Positions 7,025 to 61,623 of a stretch of DNA of 64,000 nt are shown here, piece by piece (position 1 is the stretch's first letter; each line of letters begins with the position of its first letter). Source of the DNA: Dictyostelium discoideum (lineage: Eukaryota). Both the position numbers and the translations under genes were made by a program. The notes under the pieces are model-generated. The model was given only the letters and a program-made list of their open reading frames with translations. It had not been told where the DNA came from and made no database searches. The DNA is taken from NCBI GenBank assembly GCA_000004695.1, contig CM000151.3, positions 7,776,001-7,840,000 on the forward strand, given 5' to 3'.

Positions 7025-8465
7025 ATGATAGATTATAAAATTAATGAAATTTTAGTTAAACAATTAAATGATGACTATAATTGTTCAATTTGTGTAGATC
7101 CAGTATTAAATAGTTTACCATTAGAACAACATCAAGCACTTTCTTGTAAAAATGGTCATTTATTATGTCAAGCTTGTTGGGGTAAACAATTAGCATTAAG
7201 AAAAGAATGTTGCATTTGTAAAATAAAAGTTGAAAGTATTAGCGAACTTTGTAGAAATATGTATGTATATAAAAAGTTATAATTTCATTGTTTTTTTTTT
7301 TTTTTTTTTTTTTTTTTCCTTTATTAATTATTATTTTTTAAAAAAAAGATTTTTAGAAAAAGGATTTAGAAATAAAAAAGTTCATTGTCCAAATGGATTT
7401 GAAAATTTTAAAGTTGATGAAAAGTTAATAAAAGATGAAAGTGATGGATGTAAATCAGTGATAACTATAGATCAATTAGAATCTCATCTTAGGGAATGCG
7501 AATTTGTATTTATAGAATGTCCAAATGATCCAATTAGATGTAAAGATAAATTTAGAAAGAATCAAACCGATAAACATATGAACAAATGTCAATATGTTAC
7601 AATCAATTGCGAACATTGTAAAGAACCAGTGATAAAGAATGATATGCCAACACATATCGAGAATGATTGTTCCATCATCTCATTGGAATGCGAATTTTGT
7701 AAAGATAAATTTGGTAGACGTTCATTAGAGAACCATATAGCTAATGAATGTCCAAACGTAGTTATCGATTGTCCTCATAAAGAGGGTGGTTGTACTGCTA
7801 GAATCAAGAGATGCTATCTTTCACAACATCTCACCGAAGAAGATAACCATATCAGATATATGCAAAAAATCATTGAAAAACATAGAATTCAAGTAGAGGA
7901 ATCAGATCGTATCATTAAGAAACTTCGAGTCGACTATAAAGAATTGGAAAAACGTGTAGAGATTACCTCTCGTTACAAAGGAAATTGGACCATTGAAAAT
8001 TGGTCTCAAAAACTCACTCACTATCCAAATAATGAACGCTTAAAATCCCCTTACTTTTGTATTGGTTCAAAGAGTTTTTATGTTGGTTTATATCCAAATG
8101 GTTTCAATCAAACAAATGCTGGTTTCATGAGTATCTTTTTACATCTCTATGAAAAACCTTCAACTTCAACCACTGTCGTTAGATTTAGTTTTGAATTATT
8201 ACATTCAGATCCAACAAAATCTTTAAAATTTGGTAATTATATTATTATTATTATTATTATTTTGTTTTTAAATACAATTTATTTATTTTACTTACAAAAT
8301 TTTATTTATATAGAAAAATCAAATAAATATACTGAAAATAAAGGTAGTGGATTTAGTCAATTTATAGATATAAAAATGATTAATAACTTTATTATTGATG
8401 GAAAACTCACAATTAATATTGATGTTGAAGTTATACCACCAAGTAGTTCATTGGTTACAAAATAA
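7025..8465 (+). CDS. TRAF-like protein: RING finger + TRAF-type zinc fingers + C-terminal MATH/TRAF-C domain; join(7025..7260,7349..8232,8314..8465)
   Basis: RING 'CSICVDPV...CKNGHLLCQACW...CCICK'; repeated 'C..C...H...C' TRAF zinc fingers (HCPNGF, ECPNDPIRC, NCEHCKEP, ECEFCKD, DCPHKEGGC); coiled coil, then MATH-like 'WTIENWSQKL...YFCIGSKSFYVGLYPNG'; phase-consistent GTATGT/GTAATT donors. Confidence 0.8.
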
Positions 8466-8935
8466 AAAATATCTGAAAAAAAAAAAAAATAAAAAATAAA
8501 ATTTGTTTTTTTTTTTTTTTTAAATGTTAAATTTCAATAATACCAACAAAACTCAAAGAGAAATAATTAATTTGGATATGGAAATAAGTAATACCCTTAA
8601 CTGTAATAATTATTTTCAAATCCAGTTTTTTTTTTTTTTCAACTCAAAAAATAATTTATTTTACAAACCTAAATTGCCAATTTTCAGTTTTTTTTTTATT
8701 ATTATTATTATATTAAATTAAAAAATTAATAAAATTAAATATATTAAAGTGTAATTTTGTTAAATTCTTGGTAAATTTTATTTATTTCTTTTTTTTCATT
8801 TTTTATATTAATAATCAATTATTTTTATTTTTTTTATTTTTTTTTTTATTTTTTTATTTTTTTTTTTTTTTGTGAAGTTTCAAATTTTTTTTTTTTTTTT
8901 ATTTTTTATATGTAAAAAAAAAAAAAAAGAAAATA

Positions 8936-10053
8936 ATGGATAATAATAATTCAAATAATATTAAATTAAAGAATAATTTTGAAAAAAGGTTTCAAGAGAT
9001 TGAAAATGAATTAAGAGATAGTCATATTGGATTAGATGAAAACTTTTATACATCAATAAATGATAATATTGGTATTAGTAAATTAATTAGATTATCAAAA
9101 TCAATATATATAGCGAAAGATGATGATAATGATGAAAACATTGATAAAGAGAAAGAGACTCAACAACATCAAATATTTACAACACAAGAATATGAAAATG
9201 GTATTGAAATTCATGATATAAATAATAGATTAGTATTCTTTTGTTCAGATTATTTATGGAATTGTGAAAATCATATAAAATCATTATTAAAGATTTATTC
9301 AATTAATAACTGTATAATTTATTGTGGTCTATCTGAACTTGCACATATTAGTCATCCAAATTCTTCAAAATCAAAATCAAAATCAATTAATAATTTACCA
9401 AACTTTCAAAATTTTAAAAATAAATTCATTGAAAAAATGAAATTATCTTTTAAAAAAGAAAATCAAGATATCAATCATGATGGTCATGATGATGATGATG
9501 ATGATGAATATTATCAAGATGAATTACCAGATATATCATGTACAATTAAATATTTCCCTTTATGTTATAGTCAACCATTTAAAAATTTCTTTACTATTCC
9601 AATTCAAAAATCATTATTTCCTTCAAATTATTTTATTAATGATTTAAAGTAAGTTTTTTATTATTGTTTTATTTTAATATTTATTTCTTATTTTATAAAT
9701 TACTAATATAAAAAAAAAGATTAAATGAATATAAATTAAATAAAATGCCAGAAGAAATTCAAGATAATGTTCATAAAAGTATTTATTCATTTTTATCATT
9801 TTTAAATGAAATGAAATTGGGGTCAGTGTCAGGAGAAGATTTAAATATCTATCCAATTGGACCATTTTCAAGTTATTTAGCACATGAAATTCAAACCACC
9901 TTAGCCACTATAACAAATCAACAACAAGATGATTATCATCCAATATCTTTATTATTAATTGATAGAACTTTAGATTTAGTTGGTCCATCATTACATTCTG
10001 AAAATTCAATGGATAGAATTTATTTTTCAACTACAACACCATTAAATAAATCA

Positions 10054-10103
<50 letters not shown>

Positions 10104-11721
10104 TCAACTTAATAATTATCAACCAATAATTAATATTGAAACATTTTTTGATAATGATAATAAAATAGTTAGTGAATCAAGTATTAATGAATGTCCAAGG
10201 ATTATATCAACAATTAATGGTAGTGATATTGAACGTCATCAAAATCTTGATAATACCAACAACAACAATACCAGTGGTGAAAGTAGTGTTAGATTATGGG
10301 ATAGTTTAATTACAAAGAGTTTAAAAGATGTTATAATGATATTAAAGAGAAGATTAGTTGAAATCATTTCAAAAGAGAATATAAATGTTGATATTTCAAG
10401 TATTGCTGGTCCAACTAATATTCAATCTTTAATTGCTTTAGTAAATGTTTTAAAAGATGGTGATAATAATGGCGATTATGATGATAGTGATGATAATGAT
10501 GATGATGGTAATGATGATGGTGATGATAATGGTGATAATCATAATCATATGTTAATGTATAGGTATAATGATATAATAGAAGCTGTTGCTGCAGTTGAAC
10601 AAACTATTAATTTATCATCACAGTTTCATTGGGATCAACTATTATCAATTGAAAAAATTCTATTATTAAGCTCAGGTTATGAATTAGAAGAGGAGGATGA
10701 AGATGATGAAGATGATGAAGATGAAGAAAATGAAGATAATAGTGAACCATCAATACTATCACAAATTTGTGATATAATTGAAACACCAATTAGTGGTGGT
10801 GGAGGTGATGATAAATATTATTCAATTCAAGAGATTTTAATCCTATGTGTTATGGCATATTCAATCAAAGGTTTGACCTCAAAATTATCTCAAAAACATT
10901 TAAATTCATTATCATCTTTAAATATTAGCAATAGTGTTAGTAATAATAATAGTAGTAATAGTAATCTCAGTGGTAGTGGTAGTGTCAATGACAATAATTC
11001 TGTATCAACACTCGAAAAGATACCAATATTCTCAGATTCAGATGAACAAAGATTAATCAATTGTTTATCAGATAAAATTTTAAAGGAAAATATTTATAAA
11101 GATTTAAAATTTTTAAATAGAGAATCAAATAATAATAATAATAACAATGATAACGAAGAAAAAGAAGAAGAAGAAGAAGAAGAAGAAGAAGAAGAAGATG
11201 ATGAAAATATTATTGACAAGAATGAATTAAATGAAATTTTAAAGAAAAAAGTATTAAGTAAACTTAAATCAATTGGAATTATTAGACAAAAATATTTAAA
11301 TGAACATAAATCATTAATAAGTGGTGGTGGTAGTTCAATGATGGGTGCAACTTATTCAAGTTTATTAAGTCAATTGGTGAAATCATTATTTGAGAATAGT
11401 GTTTCAACGGGTGGTAAAGATATTAAAGATTTTGAAAAGTTTAATTCATCCTCTTTGGTTGGTTATCTATTAGGTAAAACAAATTGGATGGGTAGATCAA
11501 AGAAAAGAGAGAAACCATTGGATAATAGAAAGGTTTTAATATACGTTTTAGGGGGTATCACTTTCACTGAACTCAAGGAGTTAACTGATCTCTTTGAAAA
11601 AACTCTAAAATCATCCCAATATAAAGAATTTTCAAATCATCAATTCTTAATTGGTTCAAATCAAATTTTAACACCTTTAAAATTATTTAATCATTTATTT
11701 ATAAATGAAAATAAAAAATAA
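8936..11721 (+). CDS. Sec1-family domain-containing protein (SCFD2-like); join(8936..9648,9720..11721)
   Basis: Sec1/Munc18 signature 'ISLLLIDRTLDLVGPSLHSE' and C-terminal 'KVLIYVLGGITFTELKEL'; GTAAGT donor at 9649 and acceptor after 'tactaatataaaaaaaaag' keep the frame; acidic and poly-N insertions. Confidence 0.7.
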
Positions 11722-11827
11722 AAAAATTTTAAAAAAATAAAAAAAGTGAAATTAAAAATAAAAAAAGTCATTAAAATGAAAGTATGTATGTATGTGAACT
11801 TTTATTTGAAATTAAAATGTTTTTTTT

Positions 11828-11869
<42 letters not shown>

Positions 11870-12091
11870 TTTCTTTTTAATTTTTTTTTTTTTTAATTTT
11901 TTATATTTTTCCAAAGAGTAAATTAATTTTGTGTGTGGTGTGCCTTTGATTTGTATTTGTAATAAAAAAAATAATAATAATAATAATAATAATAATTTAA
12001 AAAATAAAAATAAAAATAAAAATCTAAAAATTAAATAATTAGAAATAATAAAAAAAAAATAATAATAAAAAAATATATATAAAAAAACAGA

Positions 12092-12245
12092 ATGATTAGT
12101 GCATTATTCTTAATGAATGGAAAAGGAGAGGTGTTAATATCACGTATCTATAGAGATGATATTAGGTATGTAATTTTTTTTTTTTTTTTTTTTATATTTT
12201 TTTTTATTTTAATTTCATTATTGTTTAATTAAATTATTAATAATA

Positions 12246-12302
<57 letters not shown>

Positions 12303-13756
12303 AAATTATGGTTTTGTAGCCGTGGTGTTGCAAATGCATTCAGATTAGAAGTTATTGGATCTCAAGAAACAAGATCACCAGTAAAATTAATTGGATCAAC
12401 TTCATTTATGTATATTAAAGTTGGTAATATTTATATTGTTGGTGTATCAAGACAAAATGTTAATGCATGTATGGTATTCGAAGTATTACACCAATTGGTT
12501 GACATTTTTAAATCATATTTCGATAATTTAGATGAAGATTCAATTAGAAATAATTTTGTTTTAGTTTATGAGTTATTAGATGGTAAATATATTTTTTTTA
12601 TTTTATTTTTTTTTAAAATTATTTATTTACTAATCTTTTTATTTATTTAAAAAATAATAGAAATTTTAGATTTTGGTTACCCACAAAATTGTTCAACAGA
12701 TGTATTAAAACTTTATATTACTCAAGGTCAAGGAAAATTAAAATCACTTGATAAAGTATGTATAAAACTAATGGAAAAGAAAAAAAAAAAAAAAACTTTA
12801 TTTTTTTATTTGATTTATTAATTAATTAAAAATAAATAAATATAAAATTTTTTTTTTAAAAAAAAAAGTTAAAACAAGATAAAATTTCAAAGATTACAAT
12901 TCAAGCAACAGGTACAACACCATGGAGAACACCAGATATTAAATATAAGAGAAATGAACTTTATATTGATGTTGTGGAGAGTGTAAATTTGTTAATGTCA
13001 GCAGAAGGTAATATATTAAGAGCAGATGTATCAGGACAGGTTATGATGAAATGTTTCCTTTCTGGTATGCCAGAATGTAAATTTGGTATGAATGATAAGG
13101 TTATTATGGATAGAGAGAAATCAACAAATGGTGGTAGTGCCGCTAGAAGTGGAGCACGTCGTGCAAATGGTATTGAAATCGATGATATTACATTCCATCA
13201 ATGTGTACGTCTTGGTAAGTTTGATAGTGATCGTACAGTAAGTTTCATTCCACCAGATGGTGAATTCGAATTGATGCGTTATCGTACCACTGAACATATC
13301 AATCTACCATTCAAAGTTATACCAATCGTTAGAGAGATGGGTAGAACTCGTTTAGAGTGCTCCGTCACTGTTAAATCAAATTTTAGTAGTAAAATGTTTG
13401 GTGCAAATGTTAAAGTAATCATTCCAACACCTAAAAATACCGCTGTCTGTAAGATTGTCGTTGCAGCTGGTAAGGCTAAATATATGCCAGAACAAGATGC
13501 TATCATTTGGAGAATTAGAAGATTCCCTGGTGATACTGAATTCACTCTCAGAGCTGAAGTTGAACTTATGGCATCCGTTAATCTCGATAAAAAAGCTTGG
13601 TCACGTCCACCAATCTCTATGGAATTCCAAGTTACTATGTTCACTGCCTCTGGTTTCTCTGTTCGTTTCCTTAAAGTCGTTGAAAAAAGTAATTATACAC
13701 CAATTAAATGGGTTAGATATTTAACAAAAGCTGGTACCTATCAAAATCGTATTTAA
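12092..13756 (+). CDS. apm2: AP-2 adaptor complex mu subunit; join(12092..12165,12320..12582,12661..12755,12869..13756)
   Basis: Near-colinear with human AP2M1: 'MISALFLMNGKGEVLISRIYRDDI', 'NAFRLEVIGSQETRSPV', '[21 protein letters not shown]', 'SGMPECKFGMNDK', 'FHQCVRLGKFDSDRTVSFIPPDGEFELMRYRT', '...IKWVRYLTKAGTYQNRI*'. Intron 1 holds an A59 tract (12241..12299). Confidence 0.9.
12241..12299. repeat. A59 homopolymer in apm2 intron 1
   Basis: 59 consecutive A residues between the GTATGT donor and the ttttgtag acceptor. Confidence 0.95.
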
Positions 13757-14151
13757 AAGAAAATAAAAAAAAAAAAAAAAAGAAAAAACAAACAAAAAAT
13801 AAATAAATAAATAAATAAAAATTAAATAAAAACAAAAAAATAATAAAATATCTAAAAAAATAAGAAATAAAAAAAAAATATCTAATCGTTGGAAGCAAAT
13901 TCTTATATTTTTTTTATTTTTTTTTAATATTTTTTTTTTCTTTGAAGAATTTTTTTTTTTTTTATTTCGATCTCTGATCATTTTTATGATATTTTCAAGA
14001 TATTTTTAGATATTTTTTTTATTGTTTTTTTTTATTTTTTTTTTTTTTATTTTTTTATTTTCTTAAGAATTGTTTTTAAAATTTTTATTTTTTGTTTTAC
14101 ATTATTTTTATTTTTTTTTGTAACAATATTTAAAGAGCAGAATAAAATAAA

Positions 14152-14605
14152 ATGAAATTTATTTTATTTTTTATAATTATATTTTATTTAATTTCATATA
14201 TTAATTGTATAAAATTGGAATTAACAGATATTACTTATAATGATTTAGGAGTATCAACACCTTATCAACACAATAGGAATCCAGATGATCTTACAGGAGT
14301 AGCCTGCTCTTTTTATTTAATGTTTTATGCGGTGGATATTGAAGATACAATTAATTCGGGTGAAGCAATTAATTTTACTTCTCAAAATTATCCTGGACCA
14401 TTTTTACATCAATTATCAAATAAAACAGCCAAAATCACTCAATATGATATTTCTATCCCAATAGGGTCAACCATTTTAGATGTTATAGCCCAATATGAAA
14501 ATGCACAGACTTCAATTAATGTAACATTAAATTGTCATGGTAAATATATATTTTCTAACAAATAAATTAATTAATTAATTAATTAATTTATACAAAATAT
14601 GTACT

Positions 14606-14641
<36 letters not shown>

Positions 14642-15011
14642 CATCATAACTATAGAAAATGATTTCAGTAAAATTACAGTCAAAGTTTTTAAAAACTCAA
14701 TTGATTTTAGACCACTTTTTCCTTACCCAGCATTAGTTAAATTACAAGGTCCATTTTATAATAATATTAGGTCAATATCTGCTGTGGGTATTCCTTATGG
14801 GATTAGCTCATTTCTTGTTTTTACAACCCAACCCTATCTTATAGATAGCTTCAATATTACTATTGAATTTATTAATTCAAATGCACTAAATATAACTATC
14901 CCACAATTTTTTGAATGTAAGAATTTATTTTTAATATTTTTTTATTTATTTAATTTGGTTAAATTATTAAAATAATTTAACAATTATTAATTACTAAATA
15001 TTATTTTTTTG

Positions 15012-15065
<54 letters not shown>

Positions 15066-18000
15066 TAATATAAATAATGATATAATTTTAAATAGATTTC
15101 CAAATCAAACACAATTTTATGAAATGGGAAGATATTATTCTCCTTTGTATACTATATCTTCATCTGGTGATTTACCAATTTATAGAACAAATTCTGTGAA
15201 TTCTGTAAATCCAAAAGCAATATATGGTTCACCTAATAATTACACATTTATAGGTTCAGTAACCGAACCAGATTCAAATAAAAAATTTTTTTTACAAACA
15301 TTAAATGGAAATAAATTTGAAAATATTACAACCAATCTTTTTACAACAATAAATGGTATGTATATATGAATTATTATTATTATTATTTTATAAAAAAAAA
15401 AAAAAAAAAAAAACTGTTTTTAATAATTAATTTTTTATTTTAAAAAAAAGTTCTCCCATTTTATAGAATACCATTACTTGCTGATTTTACCTATAGTACC
15501 TCAACAGATTTATCAACAATGTTCACAGCATACTATGATTCATCCTCAAAATATGATTTTTCAACAATAAAATATACTCTTAAAGAATACAATTTAAAAT
15601 TAGCATGGCCATTTGGATTTGAAAATGGAAATAATAATGCCCATAAGTTAATTGTATCTTTTCCATTTTCCAATTATTCATCACAATATTATGATACATT
15701 TAGTGTTTCTGTTATTAGTGGTTCTGTTTTGGGAGAGTTAATCCCTGTTAATTTGGGTAGGTATTTTATTATATTTTAATTTTTATTCTTATTTTAATTT
15801 AAAATTATCACTTCTACTAACTTCTTTTTTAAAAAAAAATTATTAAAGTAACAACAAACCCTCTAAAAATTTTATCTTTTGAAATAATTTATTTATATGA
15901 TTTTAATGTTTTGGTAAAGGTAAAAATTAATTCAAATGTTTCATATAAATATGAAGAGTTTTCTTATATAGATATTTTGGGTGAAAAGTTTGGATATGAT
16001 AAATGTGTTTCAAATGAAGATCAAAATCCATCATTTGAAATTCTTGTTAATTCATGGAATTTATTTGAAAAAATTGAAATTAGTGATTTATCTGGTTATA
16101 TAATAACATATGATATGGGCTCATTTGTTGATATAAATCCTCCAAAAAGATTAATGCATCCATTAGTTATGGCTGGTATGTATAAACAAAAAAAAATTGT
16201 ATAAATAAATTAATTATTTTTACTAATTGTAATATTTTTTTTACAATTAATAGAAAATGATATTTTTTCAATTGAAAATGTTACATTTTTATATAATAAT
16301 TTAAATGTTATAGATAAAAATGTTCCAAACGTTATGTCATTTAATTATAGTGATGTAACCAATACTAGAAAACCATTTGGTCTTTACATTTTAGATGAAA
16401 CATCAGGATTTTTAAATAAATATGATGAAAAATCTGTATTTTTCTCAAAATGGAACCCTATAAAAAAAATGTATGAAATTGAATTTTTTGTTGGAGCAAA
16501 TTCAAGGGAAGGTGTTTTACCTTGGATGTTAATGGGTGGTAATAATAATGCAGGTCTTATAAATTCATTTTTACCACATTCTTGTCAACTTTTTATAAAT
16601 CAATCGAGTAAGTTTAAAATTATATTATTCAATAATTAAATAATTATTTTTATTTTTATTGACATTTATTTATTTTTTTTTTTTATTTATGTAAAAAAAA
16701 AAAAGAATTTGATGCATATGGTCCAATTTTTACAAATATTACTAAAACTAGTAGTTATGGATTAAAACCAGAATTATTAGTTGATTGGGAATTCCATATT
16801 AGAGATGAAGTTAACGGATTTGAAAGAGGTTATATTGAAATTAGAGGCGATTTTGATAGTTCCTTATATAGATTTACATTTACAAATGCAAATTTAAGAC
16901 AAGGTGATATCTATAATGGAGTATACATTTATACTCAAATTATTTCATTGAATAATGTATGTAATATTCAAAATTATACTATTACAAATGTTGAATTATA
17001 TGATCGATTTGGTAATTCTGCAAAGTTTAGTACTATTTCAGAAAGAGTTGATGTTGACCCAACAAGAAATCCTTTTATTTTATTTGGCGATGATCCAAAT
17101 ATAAACAAATTCCAAACTGATTGCAATGATACAGTAGATGACTATCCTCCAAAATTATTATCATTTTCATTTGAAAATAGGATGGAAACAACTCAATCAA
17201 TATTATTTTCATTTTCAGCTCAATGTATTGATAGTGGTATTAAATTCGCACAATACCCAATAGTTTATGCAACTTCAAGCCAATTCAAAACAGTTCAATG
17301 TATTTCTTATATAGATTTTTACAATACCACATATGCCTTGTATTCTTGTCATATGGATATTCCATTTGGTTTCGGATATAAAAATGAAATTTTATTCAGT
17401 GTTTATGGATTTATAAATAATGGCGGATACTTTAGTGGTTTCTCAACAGAATATTTGAAAACTAATTCTTTTCCATATTCAATTTCAAATATTCCGCTTT
17501 ATAGAAAGTTATCAGTTGAAAAAACAAGTTCAATTACAAATAAAGGTGGTGATTTATGGATTATTGGTAGAGAATTTGATATTAACAGTTGGGTATTTGT
17601 ACTATATACTGATGGTAAACCCAACGATTCTTTATATCCAAAAGAACTTCATTCAACTGCAATTCTTGTTAGTGGAATTAAACCTACTATACACCCTTTT
17701 ACAATTCAAGTAAGACATATTACAAATGGTACATTAGCTTCAAACAATTATAGAGTTGACCCTCTCATTTTTATATATCCTGAAGATTCATCTTCAACTT
17801 CTTCAACTTCTTCATCCTCAACCTCTTCATCTTCTAGCTCATCATCATCATCATCATCATCATTGTCATCATCATCATCATCAAATGAAACTACGCCTAG
17901 CCCAACATCATTACCAACAAATGCTCCTCAAAAATGCAAAGGAAATCCAATTTGTGGTGGTTTAAATGGATATTGTTCATCTAGTGGTTGCGTTTGTTAT

Positions 18001-18975
18001 TCTCCATGGGTTGGCGAGGATTGTTTATCAAAAGTAATCATTGTACCACAACCATCAACAAATACCTCGCAACCATCAACTGAAATTCCAATTTTTGATG
18101 ATAATAATTCAGAATCAATTATGTTTAAATCATTGATTTCAATTGTTTCATTAAGAGAATTAGATTTCAATGATAAACAAGTAAACCAATATAAATTTGA
18201 TAAATGGACTTATTCAAAATTAAATGAAACAACAAATCAATATTTCACAAATATTACAATTCAACCATCAGCTTCAAATAATTTTAAAAGTAGTATAACT
18301 AATATCACTGCAACATTACAATGGTTTAATAAAGAAACAAATATAACATTTGCAAATGAACAATTACAAATGAAACCATCTAGTATTAAATATACAATTG
18401 AAATTTCACAATATAAATTCTCAAATGCATTAAATAAATTACAACTTGTAATGTCAGCATCATTAACATCTTTTAAAGGTGATGATAATAACATTTGTTC
18501 ATTCAATAAATTTGGTGAAACTACAAATGGTGATGATTCTGAATATATTAAAATCCAAGTTGATGATCATTCATTATATGGTAGATTTATTAAAAGAGCT
18601 TTCATTGATTCAAAAATTAGATCAATTTCAAATGTTCAATTGGATTCATCATTTGAAAATCCTTCCTCATCTTCATCCACATCCTCTCAACTATTCATTG
18701 GTATTGAAATTCCAATCTATAATGATAATGTTATTATAGATCCTGACTTTTCTGTACTAATAGACAGTAAAGCTGCCTCAAATAGTGATGATAATTCAAT
18801 ATGTTCATCAAGTATATCAAAACTATCAAAAACTCAACTTGCTGGTATTATTATTGGTTCAACCCTATTTGGTTTAATAGTGATAGTTGCCATAACCTAC
18901 TATGTCATAAATAAGAGAAAAAATACTAAAATGATTAACAGGATCCAAAATAAATTAAAAAAAGTTAACAAATAA
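14152..18975 (+). CDS. Secreted/type-I membrane modular glycoprotein (signal peptide, EGF-like Cys module, Ser-rich stalk, C-terminal TM); join(14152..14539,14656..14916,15065..15355,15451..15756,15849..16175,16254..16607,16706..18975)
   Basis: N-terminal 'MKFILFFIIIFYLISYINC' signal; EGF-like 'CKGNPICGGLNGYCSSSGCVCYSPWVGEDC'; poly-Ser; TM 'LAGIIIGSTLFGLIVIVAITYYVINKRK' then stop. All six inferred introns are phase 1 with GTAAAT/GTAAGA/GTATGT/GTAGGT/GTAAGT donors; exons 2 and 6 both open with 'END(F/I)(F)S'. Middle junctions are less certain. Confidence 0.55.
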
Positions 18976-18996
18976 AATATATAACAACAAATTTAA

Positions 18997-19032
<36 letters not shown>

Positions 19033-19175
19033 TTATTATTTATTTATATTTTTATTGATTATAATTATTTTTTATTTATTGATTTTTTTTATTTTTTTAT
19101 TTTTTATTTATTTTTTTTTTTTATTTTTTTTTGTTGATTGTTAAAAATGAAAAAAAAAAATAATTACAATCAGTG

Positions 19176-19228
<53 letters not shown>

Positions 19229-19599
19229 AAAAATTAAATAAATAATTAAATTTGCCGATTATTTAAATTGGATAAAGAAAATAAATAAAAAAAATCTCAA
19301 TATTTGGTGAATCAAATAAAAAATTACATTATAGATCAAAAATATCAATAAAATGTTACATATTAAACAAGAAAAAAAAAAGATTTTTTTTATTTTTTTT
19401 TTCGCAAATTTAAAAAAAATTAAAAATTTTACATTGGCTATGTAATTTCTATGTAAAAATTTCACACTAAAAATCATTTATTGAACGATATTTTTTCGAA
19501 TTTTTTTTTTTTTTTTTTTTTGGAATTTTTCAGTTGCCCTCCACACAAAATAAAATTTTTTACTCTCACTCGGCCTTTTCAAACTTACGTTAATCAAAT

Positions 19600-20248
19600 A
19601 TGGCAGAGTACGTGTTGATCACATAAATTTTTTTTTTATTTGTATCTGTGTTTTTTTTTTTTTTAAAGATAAAAAAAAAAAAGTAAAATAAAATAAAGTT
19701 AAATTCCCTTTAGAAATAAATAAATAAAAAAATAAAACAAAGAAAAAAAAATATATATAAAAAAAAAAATAATAATAATAAAAACAAGAATTATATTCTT
19801 CAATTTTCAAAAACAGATTTAAAAAAAATAATTTAGTCTATGATTTAGAGAGAATAGTCAAATATAGGATTTAGGTACACATAAACAACAACAAAAAAAA
19901 AAAAAATCGAAATAAAAAAAAACAATATATAATAAATTTTTATTGGGAATCTAAACTTTTTATATAATATTTTATATTTATTCTTATTTTTTTTTTTTTA
20001 AAAAAAAAAAGAAATAAAAAACACATGATTGTTATTTTTTTAAAAAAAATGAATAAACACTAATATTTATATATTTTTTTTTTAATTACAGTAAAAAAAA
20101 GAAGGGATCCAAAAAAGGTGGTAAAAAGTAAGTTGAAATAAAGTTTAGAATAGTATTATCATAGAAATTTTTAGCAACTTGATTATCTACATTTTTTTTC
20201 GGTTTTTTTCAAAAAAAAAAAAAGTCGGAAAAAAAAAGAGTGAATTTT

Positions 20249-20283
<35 letters not shown>

Positions 20284-21187
20284 GTGAGATAGAGTTGCGA
20301 TGATGAAATTGATAATACTATTTTTTTTTTAAAAAAAAAAGATAACTTGGAAAAAAGAATATTAATTTAGTTTAACTTTTTTTTTTTTTTTAAAAAAAAA
20401 TTAATTTAGAGTCGACCCATTCACCCGTAAGGAATGGTATGTTGTAAGAGCACCAACTCAATTCTTCAAATCACCAGCTGATAACAAAGTCGGTTTCACT
20501 CCAGTTAACAGAACCCAAGGTACCAAACTTGCTTCTGATGGTTTAAAGGGTCGTGTCTACGAAGTTTCACTCGCTGATATGAAAGACGATGAATCCCAAG
20601 TCTTCAGAAAGATCAAATTAAGAGCTGAAGAAGTTGAAGGTAGAAACGTTTTAACCAACTTTTACGGTATGGATTTAACCTCAGACAAACTCCGTTCATT
20701 AATCCACAAATGGTCCACCTTGATCGAATGTTTTGTTGATGTTAAGACCACTGATGGTTATTTCCTCCGTGTCTTTGCCATCTGTTTCACCAAAAAGGGT
20801 GAATCCCAAAAGAAAAAGACCTCATACGCCAAGACCTCCCGTGTTAAGGCTATCCGTAAGAAGATGGTTGACATTTTAACCGAAACCGTCTCATCCAACG
20901 ACCTCAAAACCGTTGTTGACTATTTAATTGGTGTCTCATTAAACGGTGTTACCACTAACGCCTCTGGTTTTGCCCCAACCCTCGCTGAAAAAATCAGAAT
21001 CGAAGGTTCATCAATCTTCCCAATCCACAACGTCTTCATCAGAAAGGTTAAAGTCCTCAAGACTCCAAAAGTTGATGCTGCTAAATTATCTGAACTCTAT
21101 GCTTCATCTGCCACCTCAACCATCGCCCCAACTGAAGAAGTAGGTACCGCTGTTGAAAGAACTGAAGAAACCACCACCACCGCTTAA
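19600..21187 (+). CDS. rps3a: 40S ribosomal protein S3a (eS1); join(19600..19607,20092..20127,20410..21187); the 8-nt first exon is tentative
   Basis: Exons 2-3 give '[73 protein letters not shown]...[16 protein letters not shown]...', colinear with human RPS3A; GC3-rich codons (ggt, acc, ctc) typical of highly expressed genes. Exon 1 'ATGGCAGA|GTACGT' is proposed because it gives 'MA(D)KKKK'. Confidence 0.8.
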
Positions 21188-21354
21188 AAAAAAATAAAAT
21201 AATTCCTTATTTTTAAAAATATATAAAAAAAAAACCCTTCTTTTTCTTTTTATTGTTTTATTTTCAAAAAAAAAAAAAAAAAAAAAAAAAGGAATGAATA
21301 ATAAAATTTTCTTTTTTAATTTTTATTTGTTTATATATTTTTTATTATTTTTTT

Positions 21355-21662
21355 TTAAAATAAAACTTGTGAATCTGGTATAGTTAAATTATTTTTATCA
21401 TTAATTGAAATAGTGTTTTTACCAAATAGAAATTCAGAGGATTTTACAGTATTCTTTTTACCTTCTTCAAATAATTTAGTAATACCAATCCAACCATCTT
21501 TACAATTTACCCACATTATATTATTATAAGGTTTTGATTTATCAGTTTCTAAAAAGAAAGAACCATGTTTTAAAGTTGTTGAATTTCTATTTTCATAATT
21601 TTTGATATCTATTAATAATTGTTTATACATTTCATTTGTGGTGGTTGTGGTTGTGGTTGTGG

Positions 21663-21715
<53 letters not shown>

Positions 21716-22500
21716 GAATCTGATGGTGGTTGTAACATTTCTTTTACTTTAATTGTTTTTGCAGATTTTGATTTCTTATTGTAAATCATTGTATTTAAAC
21801 CAATGTTATCACTGAATGCTTTATAAAGAATCCAAATCTCATTGATGGTTTGTGTTGACCATTCTAATTTTGACATTTTTCTATTCACTTTTGGTGCTAA
21901 AGTTTTACCTTGTTCAGTTTGATTTTTAGCATTTTTGGAAGATTCTGGAAAATCTTGAATTGTTGACATTACACATTCACTTCCTAATTCAACCAAGTTT
22001 GTTAGTAATTGATTGTATAGGATTTTATCTTTATCATATGGTTCCAATTTAATTTGTTTTAAAATTTTACCACAGTCGAATCTTTCGTGATGTAATTCTA
22101 TCACCGAGATACCAACATTATCATCGTCGCTTAGAATTTGGTGGTAAATGGGTGCAGCACCACGATGTCTTGGTAATAATGATGGATGCATATTAATACC
22201 ACCATATTTAAATTTTGATAATACTGATTTCGGTATGAAATGTCCAAATGATACAACCACGGCCAAATCAAATAATTCATCATTACCTTGTTCACTTTCA
22301 CCAGTCGTTATCTTTGGTACTTGAAATCCTTTCATACCATTAATTGCATCAGGATATGTTATCTTTAAACCATTCTCAATTGCATATTCTTCAACTAATT
22401 CTTTTTTTTCGGATTTTGGACAAATAACTTGTAATTCTTTAACTAAATTATTTGTTTTTAATTCTAATTTTTTTGAAAAAAAAATTAATTAATAAACCAC

Positions 22501-22548
<48 letters not shown>

Positions 22549-22755
22549 CCAAAAATAAAAAGTGTTTAAAAAAAATACATACATACTTTGGTTTTCATGA
22601 AGAGATTTTAAAATTGGTAATGAAACATTATCAGTACCAAAAAATAAAATTCTATATGGAGGTGATTTAATTATTGAGGTGGAAAAATATCTAATGTTAT
22701 TAAATAGAATTGAGTTTTTATTTTTGTTGGTTAAAATAGAACGTGATAAAAACAT
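21355..22755 (-). CDS. Mitochondrial methionyl-tRNA formyltransferase; complement(join(21355..22436,22587..22755)); the acceptor may be 22427 instead
   Basis: Formyltransferase core 'VVSFGHFIPKSVLSKFKYGGINMHPSLLPRHRGAAPI' (the SLLPxxRG motif); N-terminal presequence-like 'MFLSRSILTNKNKNSILFNNIRYFSTS'; 'YRILFFGTD' start of the catalytic domain; GTATGT donor. A (GTT)n tract encodes a ~27-residue poly-Thr insert in the C-terminal domain. Confidence 0.8.
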
Positions 22756-23231
22756 TCTTTAAATTCTAATATTTTTTTTTATTTAATAAATATGTTTTTA
22801 TGGTATTATTAAAAATTTAAAAAAAAAAAAAAATAAATGTTTTCGTAAAAAAAGCGAATATCAAAATTGATATTACGTTTTTGGCAAAAACTGGTCAAAA
22901 TGTGTTTTAATAAAAAAAAAAAAAAAAAAATCAATTTTTAATATTTTTTTTTTTTTTTTTTATTCTGAACACCAAACCCTTTTAAATTAAATTTTTCTAA
23001 ATTTCAATTAATATTTTTTATTTTTTTTATTTTTTTTATTTTTTTTTTTTTTTGCTACCCAACATAACTAATTTGTTTTATAGATTCAAAATTTTATTTA
23101 TTTGTTCATATAAATAAATAAATATATATAAAAAAAAAAAAAAGAATAAAAAAAAAAAAAAAAAAAAAATAATAAAATAATAAAAAATTAAATAAAGTAA
23201 TAATAGTAATAAAATAATATATATAATTAAA

Positions 23232-26200
23232 ATGGCAAAGGTAAAATTTTTAATTACTATTCTTTGTTTTTAAATTAATTTTTTTTAAATTAATTCCTGT
23301 CTTAATTTTTTTTTATTTTATTTTATTTTTTTTTTTATTTTTCAAATTAAGAAACATTCAAGAGAAGAAACAATAACATCACCAAGTCCAAGTGGAAATA
23401 CAACTACAACATCTACAACAAGTCCAACATCAACAACACCAACAAAAGAAAAAAGAACAAAAATTTCAAATGGAAATAATAAAGAAAAAGAAACCAATAG
23501 TAATAATAATATAAATACAAGTAATACAAATATTTTAAATGGTAGTGTTAATAGTTTAAATAATAGTAGTACAAATTTATTTACAACACATCAAAATAAT
23601 CCAGTAAAGAATTTAAAAGGATTTGATGATATTGGTGAAGGTATACTTAGATTCGAAGGATCAAAAGAAATTGATTTCATTGGATCAGTAAAGAGAGTTC
23701 ATTCAATGATGAAAGATTATTTAAAGAAAACTCCACAATATGATTACGAATTATTAAGTCAATTATTCAAATGTGATTTACAATTGAAATTAGAGAATCT
23801 TCAATTGTTTGGTGATATTTATGTTAGAAATTGTTTTAGTATCCTTTTATCAAATTATTTTAATCAAGCCAAAGATTTAGGTAAAGAGTTTAGACAAATT
23901 GGTGGTTTCGTTTTAGTGATTAATCCAATGGATATTGAAAGTCAACCAATGGTAACTGGTAGTATTTTAACTGCTCTTCATTTAAAAATGAAATGTATTA
24001 TTTATGTTGGTCCTGGTAATTTACCATTATCACAAATTACAAGAGTAAGAGTTATTATTATTTTTATTATTATTAATTATTAATTATTATTTTTTTTATT
24101 TTTATTACTAATTTAATTTTTTTTTTTTTTTTTAAAAAATAAAAGTTATATATGTGTCATGCTAGAGGTGCAAAAATTATATTTCATAAAGGTGATGTAT
24201 CATCATGTTATACAAGAGCATGGCAACATGCAAAAGATATGAGTATGGTATTTTTAGATTGTAAATTTATACCACATTTTAGTTTATTGGGTGCAGCAAC
24301 TATTGCACATGAAATGATGGAGGATAGTCCAGATAGGGAGACAATTATCATACCATTAAGATTATATTCACAGGGTTGGAGTTATGTCAGTGGTATTTCA
24401 ATTTTCTATAAGATTATGAAACCTGAAATCAAGATTATAGTAGTTCAAATGACTGATGATCTCTTTGGTAAAGATATTGAAGGTAAAGAATTTAATAGAC
24501 AATCATTATTCCCTGACCGTTTAGAGATTGGTTGGTTAGCATTAATTCATGATCAATCAGATCTTACCAATGTTTTCGACGCTTTCGATTCAAGAAATCA
24601 AGGTAAATTCTCTGATAAAGATTTAGAGGCATTATTGATAAGCATTGGTGGTGATCCAACTAGAAATAAATCAATGTGTCCAAAATCATCACTTTCTCAA
24701 ACTGAATTTGTTCATGAAGTAATCACAGAGATCACAAATGGTTTAGAGCAATTGGAGGAGAAATTTAGCTACTTTTTACCACAATTCAAATTGGATAACT
24801 TAATCAATCATAAAATCATCGATCAATTAGTAACAGCAACCGAGGATCAAGCTTCAATCGCTTTCATTAAATGTTTAGAGTATACCCATACTCTCACCAA
24901 TGGTAAGGGTTCAATTGCTTTGGGTGGTCTAATGAGTGGTAATATTCATTTAAGACCCGATGAAAAAGTATTGGTTATGTTATCAGGTGGTTATGTCGAT
25001 GTAATCGATTTTCAAACTATTTTAAACTATGGTTTAGATATCACTGGTCAAAGCTTTGAAATTGAATTGGATTTACCCGATAATACTACATCACTAAATA
25101 AAGTATTAAATGTTATTGGTGAAAATAAAGTATCAGTTATGGAGGTATTAATGGATCGTTCTTGTGAAACTTTAAAACAATATCATGTTAGAACTTCAAT
25201 TCAATGTCATTCAAGAAATTTTGAACAACAATTTAAAATCTTTGATGTTATTAAATCTTTAGGTTTTAAATATAGTTTAAGAAAATCTGCAATTCTAAAT
25301 AAAGAAGAATCTGGTTTCCTCTCACCACCAATGATTAAGCCTTCAACAAATTTATCAATTTCTCAATCAATTAATATTGGTAGTAGTGTAACGAGTTTAC
25401 CATCATTTCCAAATACTTTAAATTCAAGTAGTTCAAATGCATTTAATAGATTTGGTAATGGTAATGGTAGTTCATCAAATACAACATCACCATCACCACC
25501 ACCACAACTACCACCACAATTACAATATAAAATTTCACCAAAACCATATCATCAACAAAAAAGAAATATTGGTGATATAACAGTTCAATCAATTAGAGAA
25601 GCACATAATAGAATTAAACATATTATGACTCAACCACCCATTTATCATTCAACTACCTATTCAAAGATTTGTGGTTGCAAAGTTACATTAATGTTAGAGA
25701 ATACTCAAAAGACTGGTAGTTTTAAGATTAGAGGTTCATCGAATATGGTGTTAAGAGCATTGGAAGGTGCAATGGTAAACACTGATGAAAGACCAGTTGG
25801 TTTAGTTGCTGCCTCTGCAGGCAATCATGCTCAAGGTGTAGCTTTAATCTCTGCAAAAGTTGGTTTACCTTGTACAATCGTTTGTCCAGAGTATGCACCA
25901 GATTCAAAATTATCATCAACTCGTCAATATGGTGCCGAAGTCATTAAAAAGGGTAAAAGTCTTGAAGAGGCTGTCAAATTGGCCGATGAAATCTGTAAGG
26001 AAAGAAATTGGACATTGGTTAGACCTTACAATGATGTTGATGTAATCGAAGGTCAAGGTACAATGGGTTGTGATATCTATGATAAAGTACCAGATGTCGA
26101 TACTGTGGTTGTAAATGTTGGTGGTGGTGGTATGATCGCTGGTATCGCACTATTCTTGAAACGTATCAATCCAAACATTAGAATCATTGGTGTTCAATCA

Positions 26201-61549: not shown

Positions 61550-61623
61550 CGAGACCATCAGGGGTCGAACCTGAGACCTACCGGTTCGTAGCCGGTCGTT
61601 ATATCCAACTAAACTATAGTCCC
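61550..61623 (-). tRNA. tRNA-Arg (anticodon ACG)
   Basis: Reverse strand GGGACTATAGTTTAGTTGGATATAACGACCGGCTACGAACCGGTAGGTCTCAGGTTCGACCCCTGATGGTCTCG: 7-bp acceptor stem (with G-U pairs), D-loop AGTTGGAT, anticodon stem ACCGG/CCGGT with loop CTACGAA (ACG), T-arm TCAGG-TTCGACC-CCTGA. Confidence 0.8.

Follow-up and report, generated by a model that had tools for sequence, protein, structure and literature searches.

The window analysed here is a stretch of 64,000 nucleotides of Dictyostelium discoideum DNA (assembly GCA_000004695.1, contig CM000151.3, positions 7,776,001 to 7,840,000 of the forward strand), and the element in question is the gene at positions 14152-18975 on its plus strand. From the ATG at 14152 to the stop codon at 18973-18975 the region holds one frame, with a coding sequence of 4197 nt and a product of 1398 aa. 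The frame is broken six times, each time with a single possible continuation, via a GT..AG intron. Judged from the sequence, this is quite probably a single functional seven-exon gene for a type-I membrane glycoprotein of the ComC-like family, in which exons 1-6 would each encode one immunoglobulin-like (Ig-like) domain and the layout would be ancestral. The six introns are short (116, 148, 95, 92, 78 and 98 nt) and have 5-12% GC vs 23-28% in the exons, the window as a whole having the 13-38% GC per kb typical of Dictyostelium DNA. All six interrupt a codon between its first and second bases (phase 1), which makes exons 2-6 symmetric 1-1 cassettes, and read-through of any intron meets a stop codon. 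Splice sites and the single consistent frame agree exactly with the coordinates, the seven exons and the six small phase-1 introns given by the initial annotation. The exons and introns are as follows:

14152-14539, + strand, exon 1: 388 nt, aa 1-129; signal peptide and predicted beta-sandwich module 1
14152-14208, + strand, signal peptide: aa 1-19; hydrophobic N-terminus after the ATG
14540-14655, + strand, intron 1: 116 nt, phase 1, GTAAAT..TATAG, 8.6% GC
14656-14916, + strand, exon 2: 261 nt, aa 130-216; predicted beta-sandwich module 2
14917-15064, + strand, intron 2: 148 nt, phase 1, GTAAGA..AAAG, 5.4% GC
15065-15355, + strand, exon 3: 291 nt, aa 217-313; predicted beta-sandwich module 3
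15356-15450, + strand, intron 3: 95 nt, phase 1, GTATGT..AAAG
15451-15756, + strand, exon 4: 306 nt, aa 314-415; predicted beta-sandwich module 4
15757-15848, + strand, intron 4: 92 nt, phase 1, GTAGGT..AAAG
15849-16175, + strand, exon 5: 327 nt, aa 416-524; predicted beta-sandwich module 5, at the position of Pfam DUF7743 in paralogues
16176-16253, + strand, intron 5: 78 nt, phase 1, GTATGT..ATAG
16254-16607, + strand, exon 6: 354 nt, aa 525-642; predicted beta-sandwich module 6
16608-16705, + strand, intron 6: 98 nt, phase 1, GTAAGT..AAAG; exactly at the start of DUF7035
16706-18975, + strand, exon 7: 2270 nt, aa 643-1398; a single open reading frame (ORF) with the intronless ComC-like core, transmembrane (TM) helix and tail

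Support for the gene model is comparative and comes from the annotations of other dictyostelid genomes, the pattern of insertions and deletions (indels) and the ratio of non-synonymous to synonymous substitution rates (dN/dS or omega, calculated according to Nei and Gojobori). At least eight other dictyostelid genomes, annotated by different pipelines, have orthologues that are colinear proteins of 1350-1450 aa and run through every junction. The relatives obtained by protein search are syntenic Dictyostelium orthologues at 91%, 89%, 83%, 66% and 49% identity, together with a paralogue and a Tieghemostelium lacteum relative, and all of them are 1362-1414 aa long. P0001, the 91%-identical orthologue from a D. 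discoideum isolate, aligns colinearly with the window protein across all six junctions, and the gene ends annotated in the syntenic genome L001 fall precisely on 14152 and 18975. When P0001, P0009 and P0004 were mapped onto their own DNA, the same six introns were found, all of them phase 1. In another genome, L009, which matches the window at 99.3% identity with 15 mismatches over 21.8 kb, the annotation puts a product of 1398 residues at the corresponding position; when the exon coordinates of the window gene are applied, only one residue differs (N265D), and 27 of the 28 differences over the gene span are intronic, mostly in homopolymer lengths.

The indel pattern follows the proposed exons. 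Relative to L001, exons 1-6 have no indels at all and introns 1-6 have 19, 34, 60, 2, 5 and 4 gap columns, respectively. Exon 7 has 66 gap columns, which mainly correspond to a 21-residue gap in the Ser/Thr-rich linker of the protein alignment. Among the orthologues the exon lengths differ by multiples of three only (388/385/382, 261/273, 291/303, 306/309/297, 327/330/321 and 354/375 nt), the intron lengths vary freely and the splice sites are all conserved. The ORF is intact over the seven exons also in the syntenic orthologues from at least six genomes. In the small exons dN/dS is 0.29-0.53 in comparison with P0001 (dS ~0.1) and 0.37-0.57 in comparison with D. dimigraforme (dS 0.37-0.83), dS ranging from 0.08 to 0.83. 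Exon by exon, the values are 0.29-0.57 (exon 1), 0.53-0.57 (exon 2), 0.37-0.52 (exon 3), 0.51-0.52 (exon 4) and 0.30-0.48 (exon 6). Since dN/dS stays below one in every small exon, purifying selection acts in the proposed frame.

The introns of nine relatives were mapped for comparison with the window gene; the contig-edge gene P0120 was left out of the phase count because it could not be mapped to DNA. The numbers of phase-1 introns are:

P0001, D. discoideum isolate, orthologue: 6 of 6
P0009, D. discoideum isolate, orthologue: 6 of 6
P0004, D. dimigraforme, orthologue: 6 of 6
P0005, D. firmibasis: 7 of 7
P0006, paralogue: 4 of 4
P0016, paralogue: 5 of 5
P0007, T. lacteum: 5 of 5
P0031, T. 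lacteum: 5 of 5
P0041, assembly GCA_000190715.1, which we take to be D. purpureum: 6 of 7

With the window gene included, 56 of the 57 introns in ten genes are phase 1, the sole exception being a dubious 45-nt intron at aa 7 of P0041. The intron positions coincide in the protein alignment and amount to approximately eight distinct positions, one or two of which are missing from individual lineages. The position of intron 1 is kept in P0001, P0004, P0005, P0006, P0009 and P0016. Intron 5 is absent from P0016, and P0006 has neither intron 4 (exons 4 and 5 are fused) nor intron 6; adjacent modules are fused because the intron between them was lost in that lineage. Additional phase-1 positions occur after the signal peptide in T. 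lacteum and before the TM/tail region in P0005 and P0041. The background consists of 18 introns from ten unrelated genes nearby in the fetched loci; their phases, reconstructed from annotated spans and product lengths, were distributed 4/8/6 over phases 0/1/2. Six phase-1 introns out of six have a probability of ~0.001-0.008 if the probability of phase 1 is set at ~0.33-0.44. The one-domain phase-1 layout, common to Dictyostelium and Tieghemostelium and accompanied by lineage-specific intron losses, appears from these sequences to be ancestral to the family.

The N-terminal part of the protein gave no match in the Pfam scan: aa 1-642 were unmatched, and Ig, I-set, V-set, C2-set, fn3 and TIG were all without a match in the window protein at E<=1. 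Likewise, a sequence search of the PDB with the N-terminal profile returned no solved relatives. An exhaustive HMMER profile search retrieved 113 cluster representatives at E<=1e-3 (79 at E<=1e-10) that share a colinear N-terminal region of ~630 aa; most of the 113 are 1300-1450 aa long, with profile positions 1-633 matched at approximately residues 20-660. The fold was modelled with AlphaFold2 from residues 20-654 of P0001, i.e., the N-terminal 635 residues of the orthologue, and an alignment of 45 of these representatives, which gave an all-beta model with a predicted local distance difference test score (pLDDT) of 83.6 and a predicted template modelling score (pTM) of 0.78. A run with seven sequences (pLDDT 41) was unusable.

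In the numbering of the model the exon boundaries fall at 110, 197, 294, 396, 505 and 623, and each lies in coil between clusters of 7-10 strands; exon 1 accounts for eight strands, the last of which ends at the exon boundary, and exon 2 for seven. The best solved matches in Foldseek are single Ig-like domains and multi-Ig ectodomains (CSF-1R, VEGFR-1 D1-6, contactin Ig1-6, PirB and DSCAM), at 4-16% identity to the modelled array. Two Pfam domain limits also coincide with introns. Exon 7 begins at aa 643 and its first complete codon, aa 644, is the start of DUF7035; DUF7743, detected in paralogues (P0006 aa 438-547; P0012 aa 428-539) and absent from the window protein at E<=1, aligns to the exon-5 module and ends at the intron. 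Because of the strand clusters, the loop boundaries and these two domain limits, one exon is taken to correspond to one Ig-like beta-sandwich, so that according to the model exons 1-6 would each encode one such domain, and the symmetric 1-1 exons are indeed structural modules, as had been supposed. This provides predicted domain limits for modules 1-4, which Pfam leaves unmatched here; module 5 stands at the DUF7743 position and module 6 is also unmatched by Pfam. Cysteines are few in aa 1-642 (C52, C128, C468 and C635, plus C19 in the signal peptide), modules 2-4 have none, and no conserved intradomain Cys pair was found in the modules. With neither an Ig-type Pfam match, nor such a Cys pair, nor a PDB relative, the modules are not members of the immunoglobulin superfamily (IgSF) at the sequence level.

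The initial annotation had pointed to an END(F/I)(F)S motif shared by exons 2 and 6 as a sign of duplicated modules. The motif is present at the start of both exons, but it is kept in close orthologues only, and profile-profile comparison of all module pairs with hhalign found none significantly similar, the pair of exons 2 and 6 reaching a probability of 0.18% over 6 columns. Hidden Markov models (HMMs) of the single modules, scanned over the ~150 proteins already retrieved as relatives, detected the fixed order E1..E6-DUF7035 only, never permuted or locally duplicated, with the exon 6 module being the most widely detected of the N-terminal modules. The only repeats of modules are whole-gene tandem fusions, e.g., P0011 (2686 aa). 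P0011 and a few other database proteins hold two complete E1..E6-DUF7035 units, most likely because adjacent tandem genes were joined in the annotation. As to the hallmarks of Patthy's class 1-1 modules, the gene has symmetric phase-1 exons and exon limits that coincide with structural domain limits; the same module was not found elsewhere or in unrelated genes among the retrieved relatives that were scanned. Exon shuffling in the sense of modules moving between genes, which had also been proposed, is not shown, because the order is fixed in ~150 relatives.

Exon 7 encodes the part of the protein by which the family can be recognized:

16708-17127, + strand, DUF7035: aa 644-783; Pfam E=4.2e-34, profile positions 1-137 of 137
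17149-17487, + strand, DUF7034: aa 791-903; Pfam E=3.5e-26
17491-17778, + strand, probable DUF8390 (PF28405): aa 905-1000; placed by comparison with orthologues
17788-17883, + strand, Ser/Thr-rich low-complexity linker: aa 1004-1035; length varies between strains
17935-18036, + strand, EGF-like six-Cys knot, DUF7949: aa 1053-1086; Pfam E=1.3e-13, weak teneurin-EGF matches
18127-18759, + strand, ComC supersandwich domain (ComC_SSD, PF22933): aa 1117-1327; E=8.8e-19, 68.5 bits vs a cut-off of 24
18838-18909, + strand, TM helix: aa 1354-1377; then a basic cytoplasmic tail of 21 aa, with the stop codon at 18973-18975

DUF7035, DUF7034, DUF7949 and ComC_SSD all score well above the Pfam cut-offs. 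PF28405 lies between DUF7034 and DUF7949 in the precomputed matches of the orthologues P0001-P0006; the local Pfam-A scan of the window protein gave no match to it. The cysteines of the EGF-like knot are at positions 1053, 1059, 1066, 1071, 1073 and 1082. Hydrophobic 19-mers start only at aa 1-6 and aa 1352-1359, i.e., in the signal peptide and in the TM helix, and there are 26 N-X-S/T sequons. The product is thus the modular type-I membrane glycoprotein that had been predicted, with a signal peptide and a single C-terminal TM helix. The EGF-like knot, the Ser run and the one TM helix ascribed to the last exon are all there, but the Ser run is not a membrane-adjacent stalk, because it is located before the EGF-like and supersandwich domains. 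This stretch, which is likely O-glycosylated, divides a distal rod of ~1000 aa from a membrane-proximal base made up of the EGF-like and supersandwich domains. As every defining domain that could be tested is found, the window protein can be assigned by its predicted domains to the ComC-like family. The gene is an unnamed ComC-like paralogue, and identity with comC itself is not implied. A search with the EGF and supersandwich part as a query returned only short paralogues of 190-550 aa, missed the known orthologues and provided no gene name.

Selection is unevenly distributed along the protein. Overall omega is 0.32-0.39, with 0.42-0.49 for the Ig-like array, 0.25-0.31 for the core and the lowest values, 0.12-0.26, for the EGF and supersandwich part. 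In the comparison with P0001, aa 906-1000 (~17491-17778) show 13.8 non-synonymous vs 1.2 synonymous changes, an omega of ~3.5 based on small numbers; the excess is not significant (P ~0.13 in a binomial estimate by hand), and in comparison with D. dimigraforme omega for this segment is 0.34. A 17-kb region of the window (8108-25087) is ~8% different from ACTFIR/ACTFIW, which are labelled D. discoideum, with 5-13% in introns and spacers. With respect to the divergent isolate dS is 0.11 in the ComC-like gene and 0.03 in the gene of AP-2 mu. The 9% difference between the proteins does not reflect hypervariability of this locus, because the whole region differs by ~8%.

Near-identical assemblies offer a side observation on the same region. 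GCA_054883475.1 is 99.3% identical to the window and differs almost entirely in homopolymer lengths, and the label D. discoideum seems to cover deep lineages. Homopolymers in introns and spacers are the source of most differences among such assemblies. Intron 2 of the window gene has an unbroken A run of ~52 nt at 15012-15063.

Several other explanations of the locus have to be considered. The initial annotation itself had raised the possibility that exons 1-6 are one or two separate upstream genes and that the 16706-18975 ORF is a gene of its own. AATAAA-like strings do occur in the AT-rich introns, yet scanning for poly(A) signals is uninformative because the DNA is ~90% A+T. Exon 7 is without a signal peptide of its own and, because its first Met is aa 802, would be unable to start a secreted protein alone. 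DUF7035 starts with the first complete codon of this exon, and intron 6 measures just 98 nt. Moreover, in P0006 and two T. lacteum genes intron 6 is missing, and a single exon runs through module 6 into DUF7035. Together with the colinear orthologues from different pipelines, the frame-preserving exon lengths and dN/dS, these observations make separate genes very unlikely, with hardly any probability left to them, and the possibility was rejected on these comparative grounds. That a ComC-like gene is present here only as a pseudogene copy, decaying or unexpressed, might be suspected from the absence of the exact protein from the protein collection searched and from the many short relatives of 190-550 aa mentioned above, which were taken for fragments. 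However, the intact 4197-nt ORF, here and in syntenic orthologues of at least six genomes, the conservation of every splice site and an omega of 0.32-0.39 overall and below one in each exon render a pseudogene highly improbable.

The uniform phase could also have arisen by chance, or through a bias in how introns are inserted or retained, in which case it would have nothing to do with domain modularity or with the duplication or shuffling of exons. Phase 1 is frequent among the few local background introns (8 of 18), the modules have no detectable similarity to each other, and their fixed order gives no sign of mobility. Against this stand the low probability of six out of six under that very background (~0.001-0.008), the 56 of 57 phase-1 introns at ~8 positions in ten genes, which include the signal-peptide and the pre-TM introns, and the placement of every intron in an inter-domain loop, two of them at Pfam domain limits. 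We therefore regard such an origin of the phase pattern as rather unlikely. An allorecognition-type locus under diversifying selection, like tgrB1/tgrC1, might explain why the protein differs by 9% from that of other D. discoideum isolates: it is 91% identical to its counterpart in ACTFIR/ACTFIW, against 100% for the adjacent AP-2 mu, the N-terminal array evolves faster than the core, and aa 906-1000 show the excess of non-synonymous changes described above. This explanation is improbable, since the difference of ~8% over 17 kb and the dS of 0.11 and 0.03 in the two genes show the isolates to be simply divergent lineages, the excess is not significant, and there is no TIG domain in the window protein. 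Diversifying selection on the gene as a whole was rejected, omega being 0.32 and no exon exceeding 0.6.

Some points weigh against the reading preferred here, that of a single functional ComC-like gene with one Ig-like domain in each of exons 1-6. The exact window protein is absent from a collection of 15 billion proteins, and no transcript-derived fragment was found there; in the same exact look-up four other ORFs of the window were also unmatched, AP-2 mu being the sole match. The background sample of intron phases is small (18 introns). The structural model is that of the 91%-identical orthologue and not of the window protein, and only secondary structure defines the domain limits. The modules share no sequence similarity that would support a common origin, and the function proposed below is deduced from the architecture and from the comC mutant phenotype.

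The window gene is situated between the genes apm2 and rps3a, and the same order is found in four other genomes. The other features recorded in the window are:

12092-13756, + strand, AP-2 mu gene (apm2): four exons, intron phases 2, 1 and 0; the protein is identical to that of AX4 (EAL68755.1) and three other isolates
19600-21187, + strand, rps3a: apparent 8-nt first coding exon at 19600-19607, ATGGCAGA, followed by the intron start GTACGT
61550-61623, - strand, tRNA-Arg (anticodon ACG): the sole Rfam/ARAGORN match in the window

The intron after the apparent first exon of rps3a would be ~0.8 kb long by homology with a 799-nt intron reconstructed in L001. A GC-richer island in the spacer, at ~19530-19640, is accounted for by this arrangement; Rfam detected nothing at the island, and Rfam and tRNA scans detected nothing near the window gene. 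In addition to that, two loci of relatives deserve mention. Beside the paralogue P0006, a 350-aa gene at L003 12355-13777 has no Pfam match and may encode a further modular secreted protein; the reconstruction that best fits its span and product length contains three introns, each of them phase 1. In T. lacteum, L004 1-10414 carries at least three ComC-like genes head-to-tail (P0033, P0031 and P0007), with P0033 cut off by the end of the locus. In both P0031 and P0007, introns 1 and 6 of the window gene are missing, and an additional phase-1 intron directly follows the signal peptide.

The protein shares with the Dictyostelium ComC and ComC-like family the DUF7035/DUF7034/DUF7949/ComC_SSD series, the signal peptide, the one C-terminal TM helix and the length of ~1400 aa, and its N-terminal 630 aa are colinear with the 113 cluster representatives. 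Metazoan IgSF proteins (ICAM, NCAM, DSCAM, contactin and the Kit/VEGFR ectodomains) are likewise type-I glycoproteins with strings of ~90-110-aa Ig-like domains encoded by phase-1 domain exons; they are the best structural matches of the N-terminal model, which appears to have the Ig-like beta-sandwich fold. Unlike them, the window protein has no Ig or fn3 match at the sequence level and no conserved intradomain disulfide, identity being 4-16%. Since the host lineage, Amoebozoa, is a different one, the likeness would represent convergence or very deep sharing of a fold and not membership. For mobile animal domains a preference for phase 1 and one module per exon have been described (PMC3488318). 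In the Amphimedon aggregation factors (AqAFs) 154 of 155 introns are phase 1, and domains respect exon boundaries despite low similarity between repeats (PMC5400394). Sponge aggregation factors resemble the window gene in being extracellular multi-domain genes with near-uniform phase 1, in their case for adhesion or allorecognition; they differ in that the AqAF domains are Calx-beta, Wreath and VWA/VWD, and in that their architectures vary between species whereas the ComC-like order is fixed. The Tgr (IPT/TIG) proteins, e.g., TgrB1/TgrC1, are dictyostelid type-I membrane proteins with Ig-fold arrays that take part in developmental cell-cell recognition. The window protein is a similar dictyostelid type-I membrane protein with a predicted Ig-fold array, but it has no TIG domain (PF01833) at E<=1, shows no strong diversifying selection and has a different C-terminal core. 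Counts of the Tgr family have been reported (PMC4931340).

Probably heavily glycosylated, the protein most likely works on the cell surface, where it would take part in adhesion, recognition or communication between cells or with the substrate. Binding would likely fall to the distal Ig-like array, which evolves faster, and the conserved EGF and supersandwich part would form the membrane-proximal base; this base and the short basic tail suggest signalling through partners and not through an enzymatic domain. Mutants of comC are defective in intercellular communication during development, and by analogy a role of the window protein in adhesion, recognition or communication is plausible. The gene comC has been listed as a developmentally essential, secreted and TM gene 'with EGF domains' (PMC4931340).

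As for the origin of the array, domain exons flanked by phase-1 introns were most likely duplicated or inserted at an early date to form it, and the modules would since have diverged beyond sequence recognition. The simplest history would be that of an old array, possibly made via exon duplication and frozen since. It is conceivable, although we hold it doubtful, that the ComC-like family represents an independent non-animal case in which a surface protein for adhesion or recognition was put together from phase-1 one-domain exons, with an Ig-like array that arose from exons duplicated or shuffled in the dictyostelid ancestor and was kept for hundreds of millions of years. Our literature search found no description of a per-domain phase-1 exon structure in dictyostelids and almost nothing on comC or on Dictyostelium intron phase.

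One-domain exons with uniform phase-1 introns in modular extracellular proteins are usually held to be an animal signature. Here the same gene grammar appears in a social amoeba, in 56 of 57 introns and in a family that counts over 100 sequence clusters. The analysis also fixes the gene model for one unnamed surface protein of the ComC-like type, and the gene architecture is a notable one within a known family. The family would also provide a clean non-metazoan test case of whether phase-1 domain exons come from the building of proteins or from the retention of introns at domain linkers. If the ComC-like family is truly an independent non-animal case, the '1-1 module' route would accompany aggregative as well as animal multicellularity.

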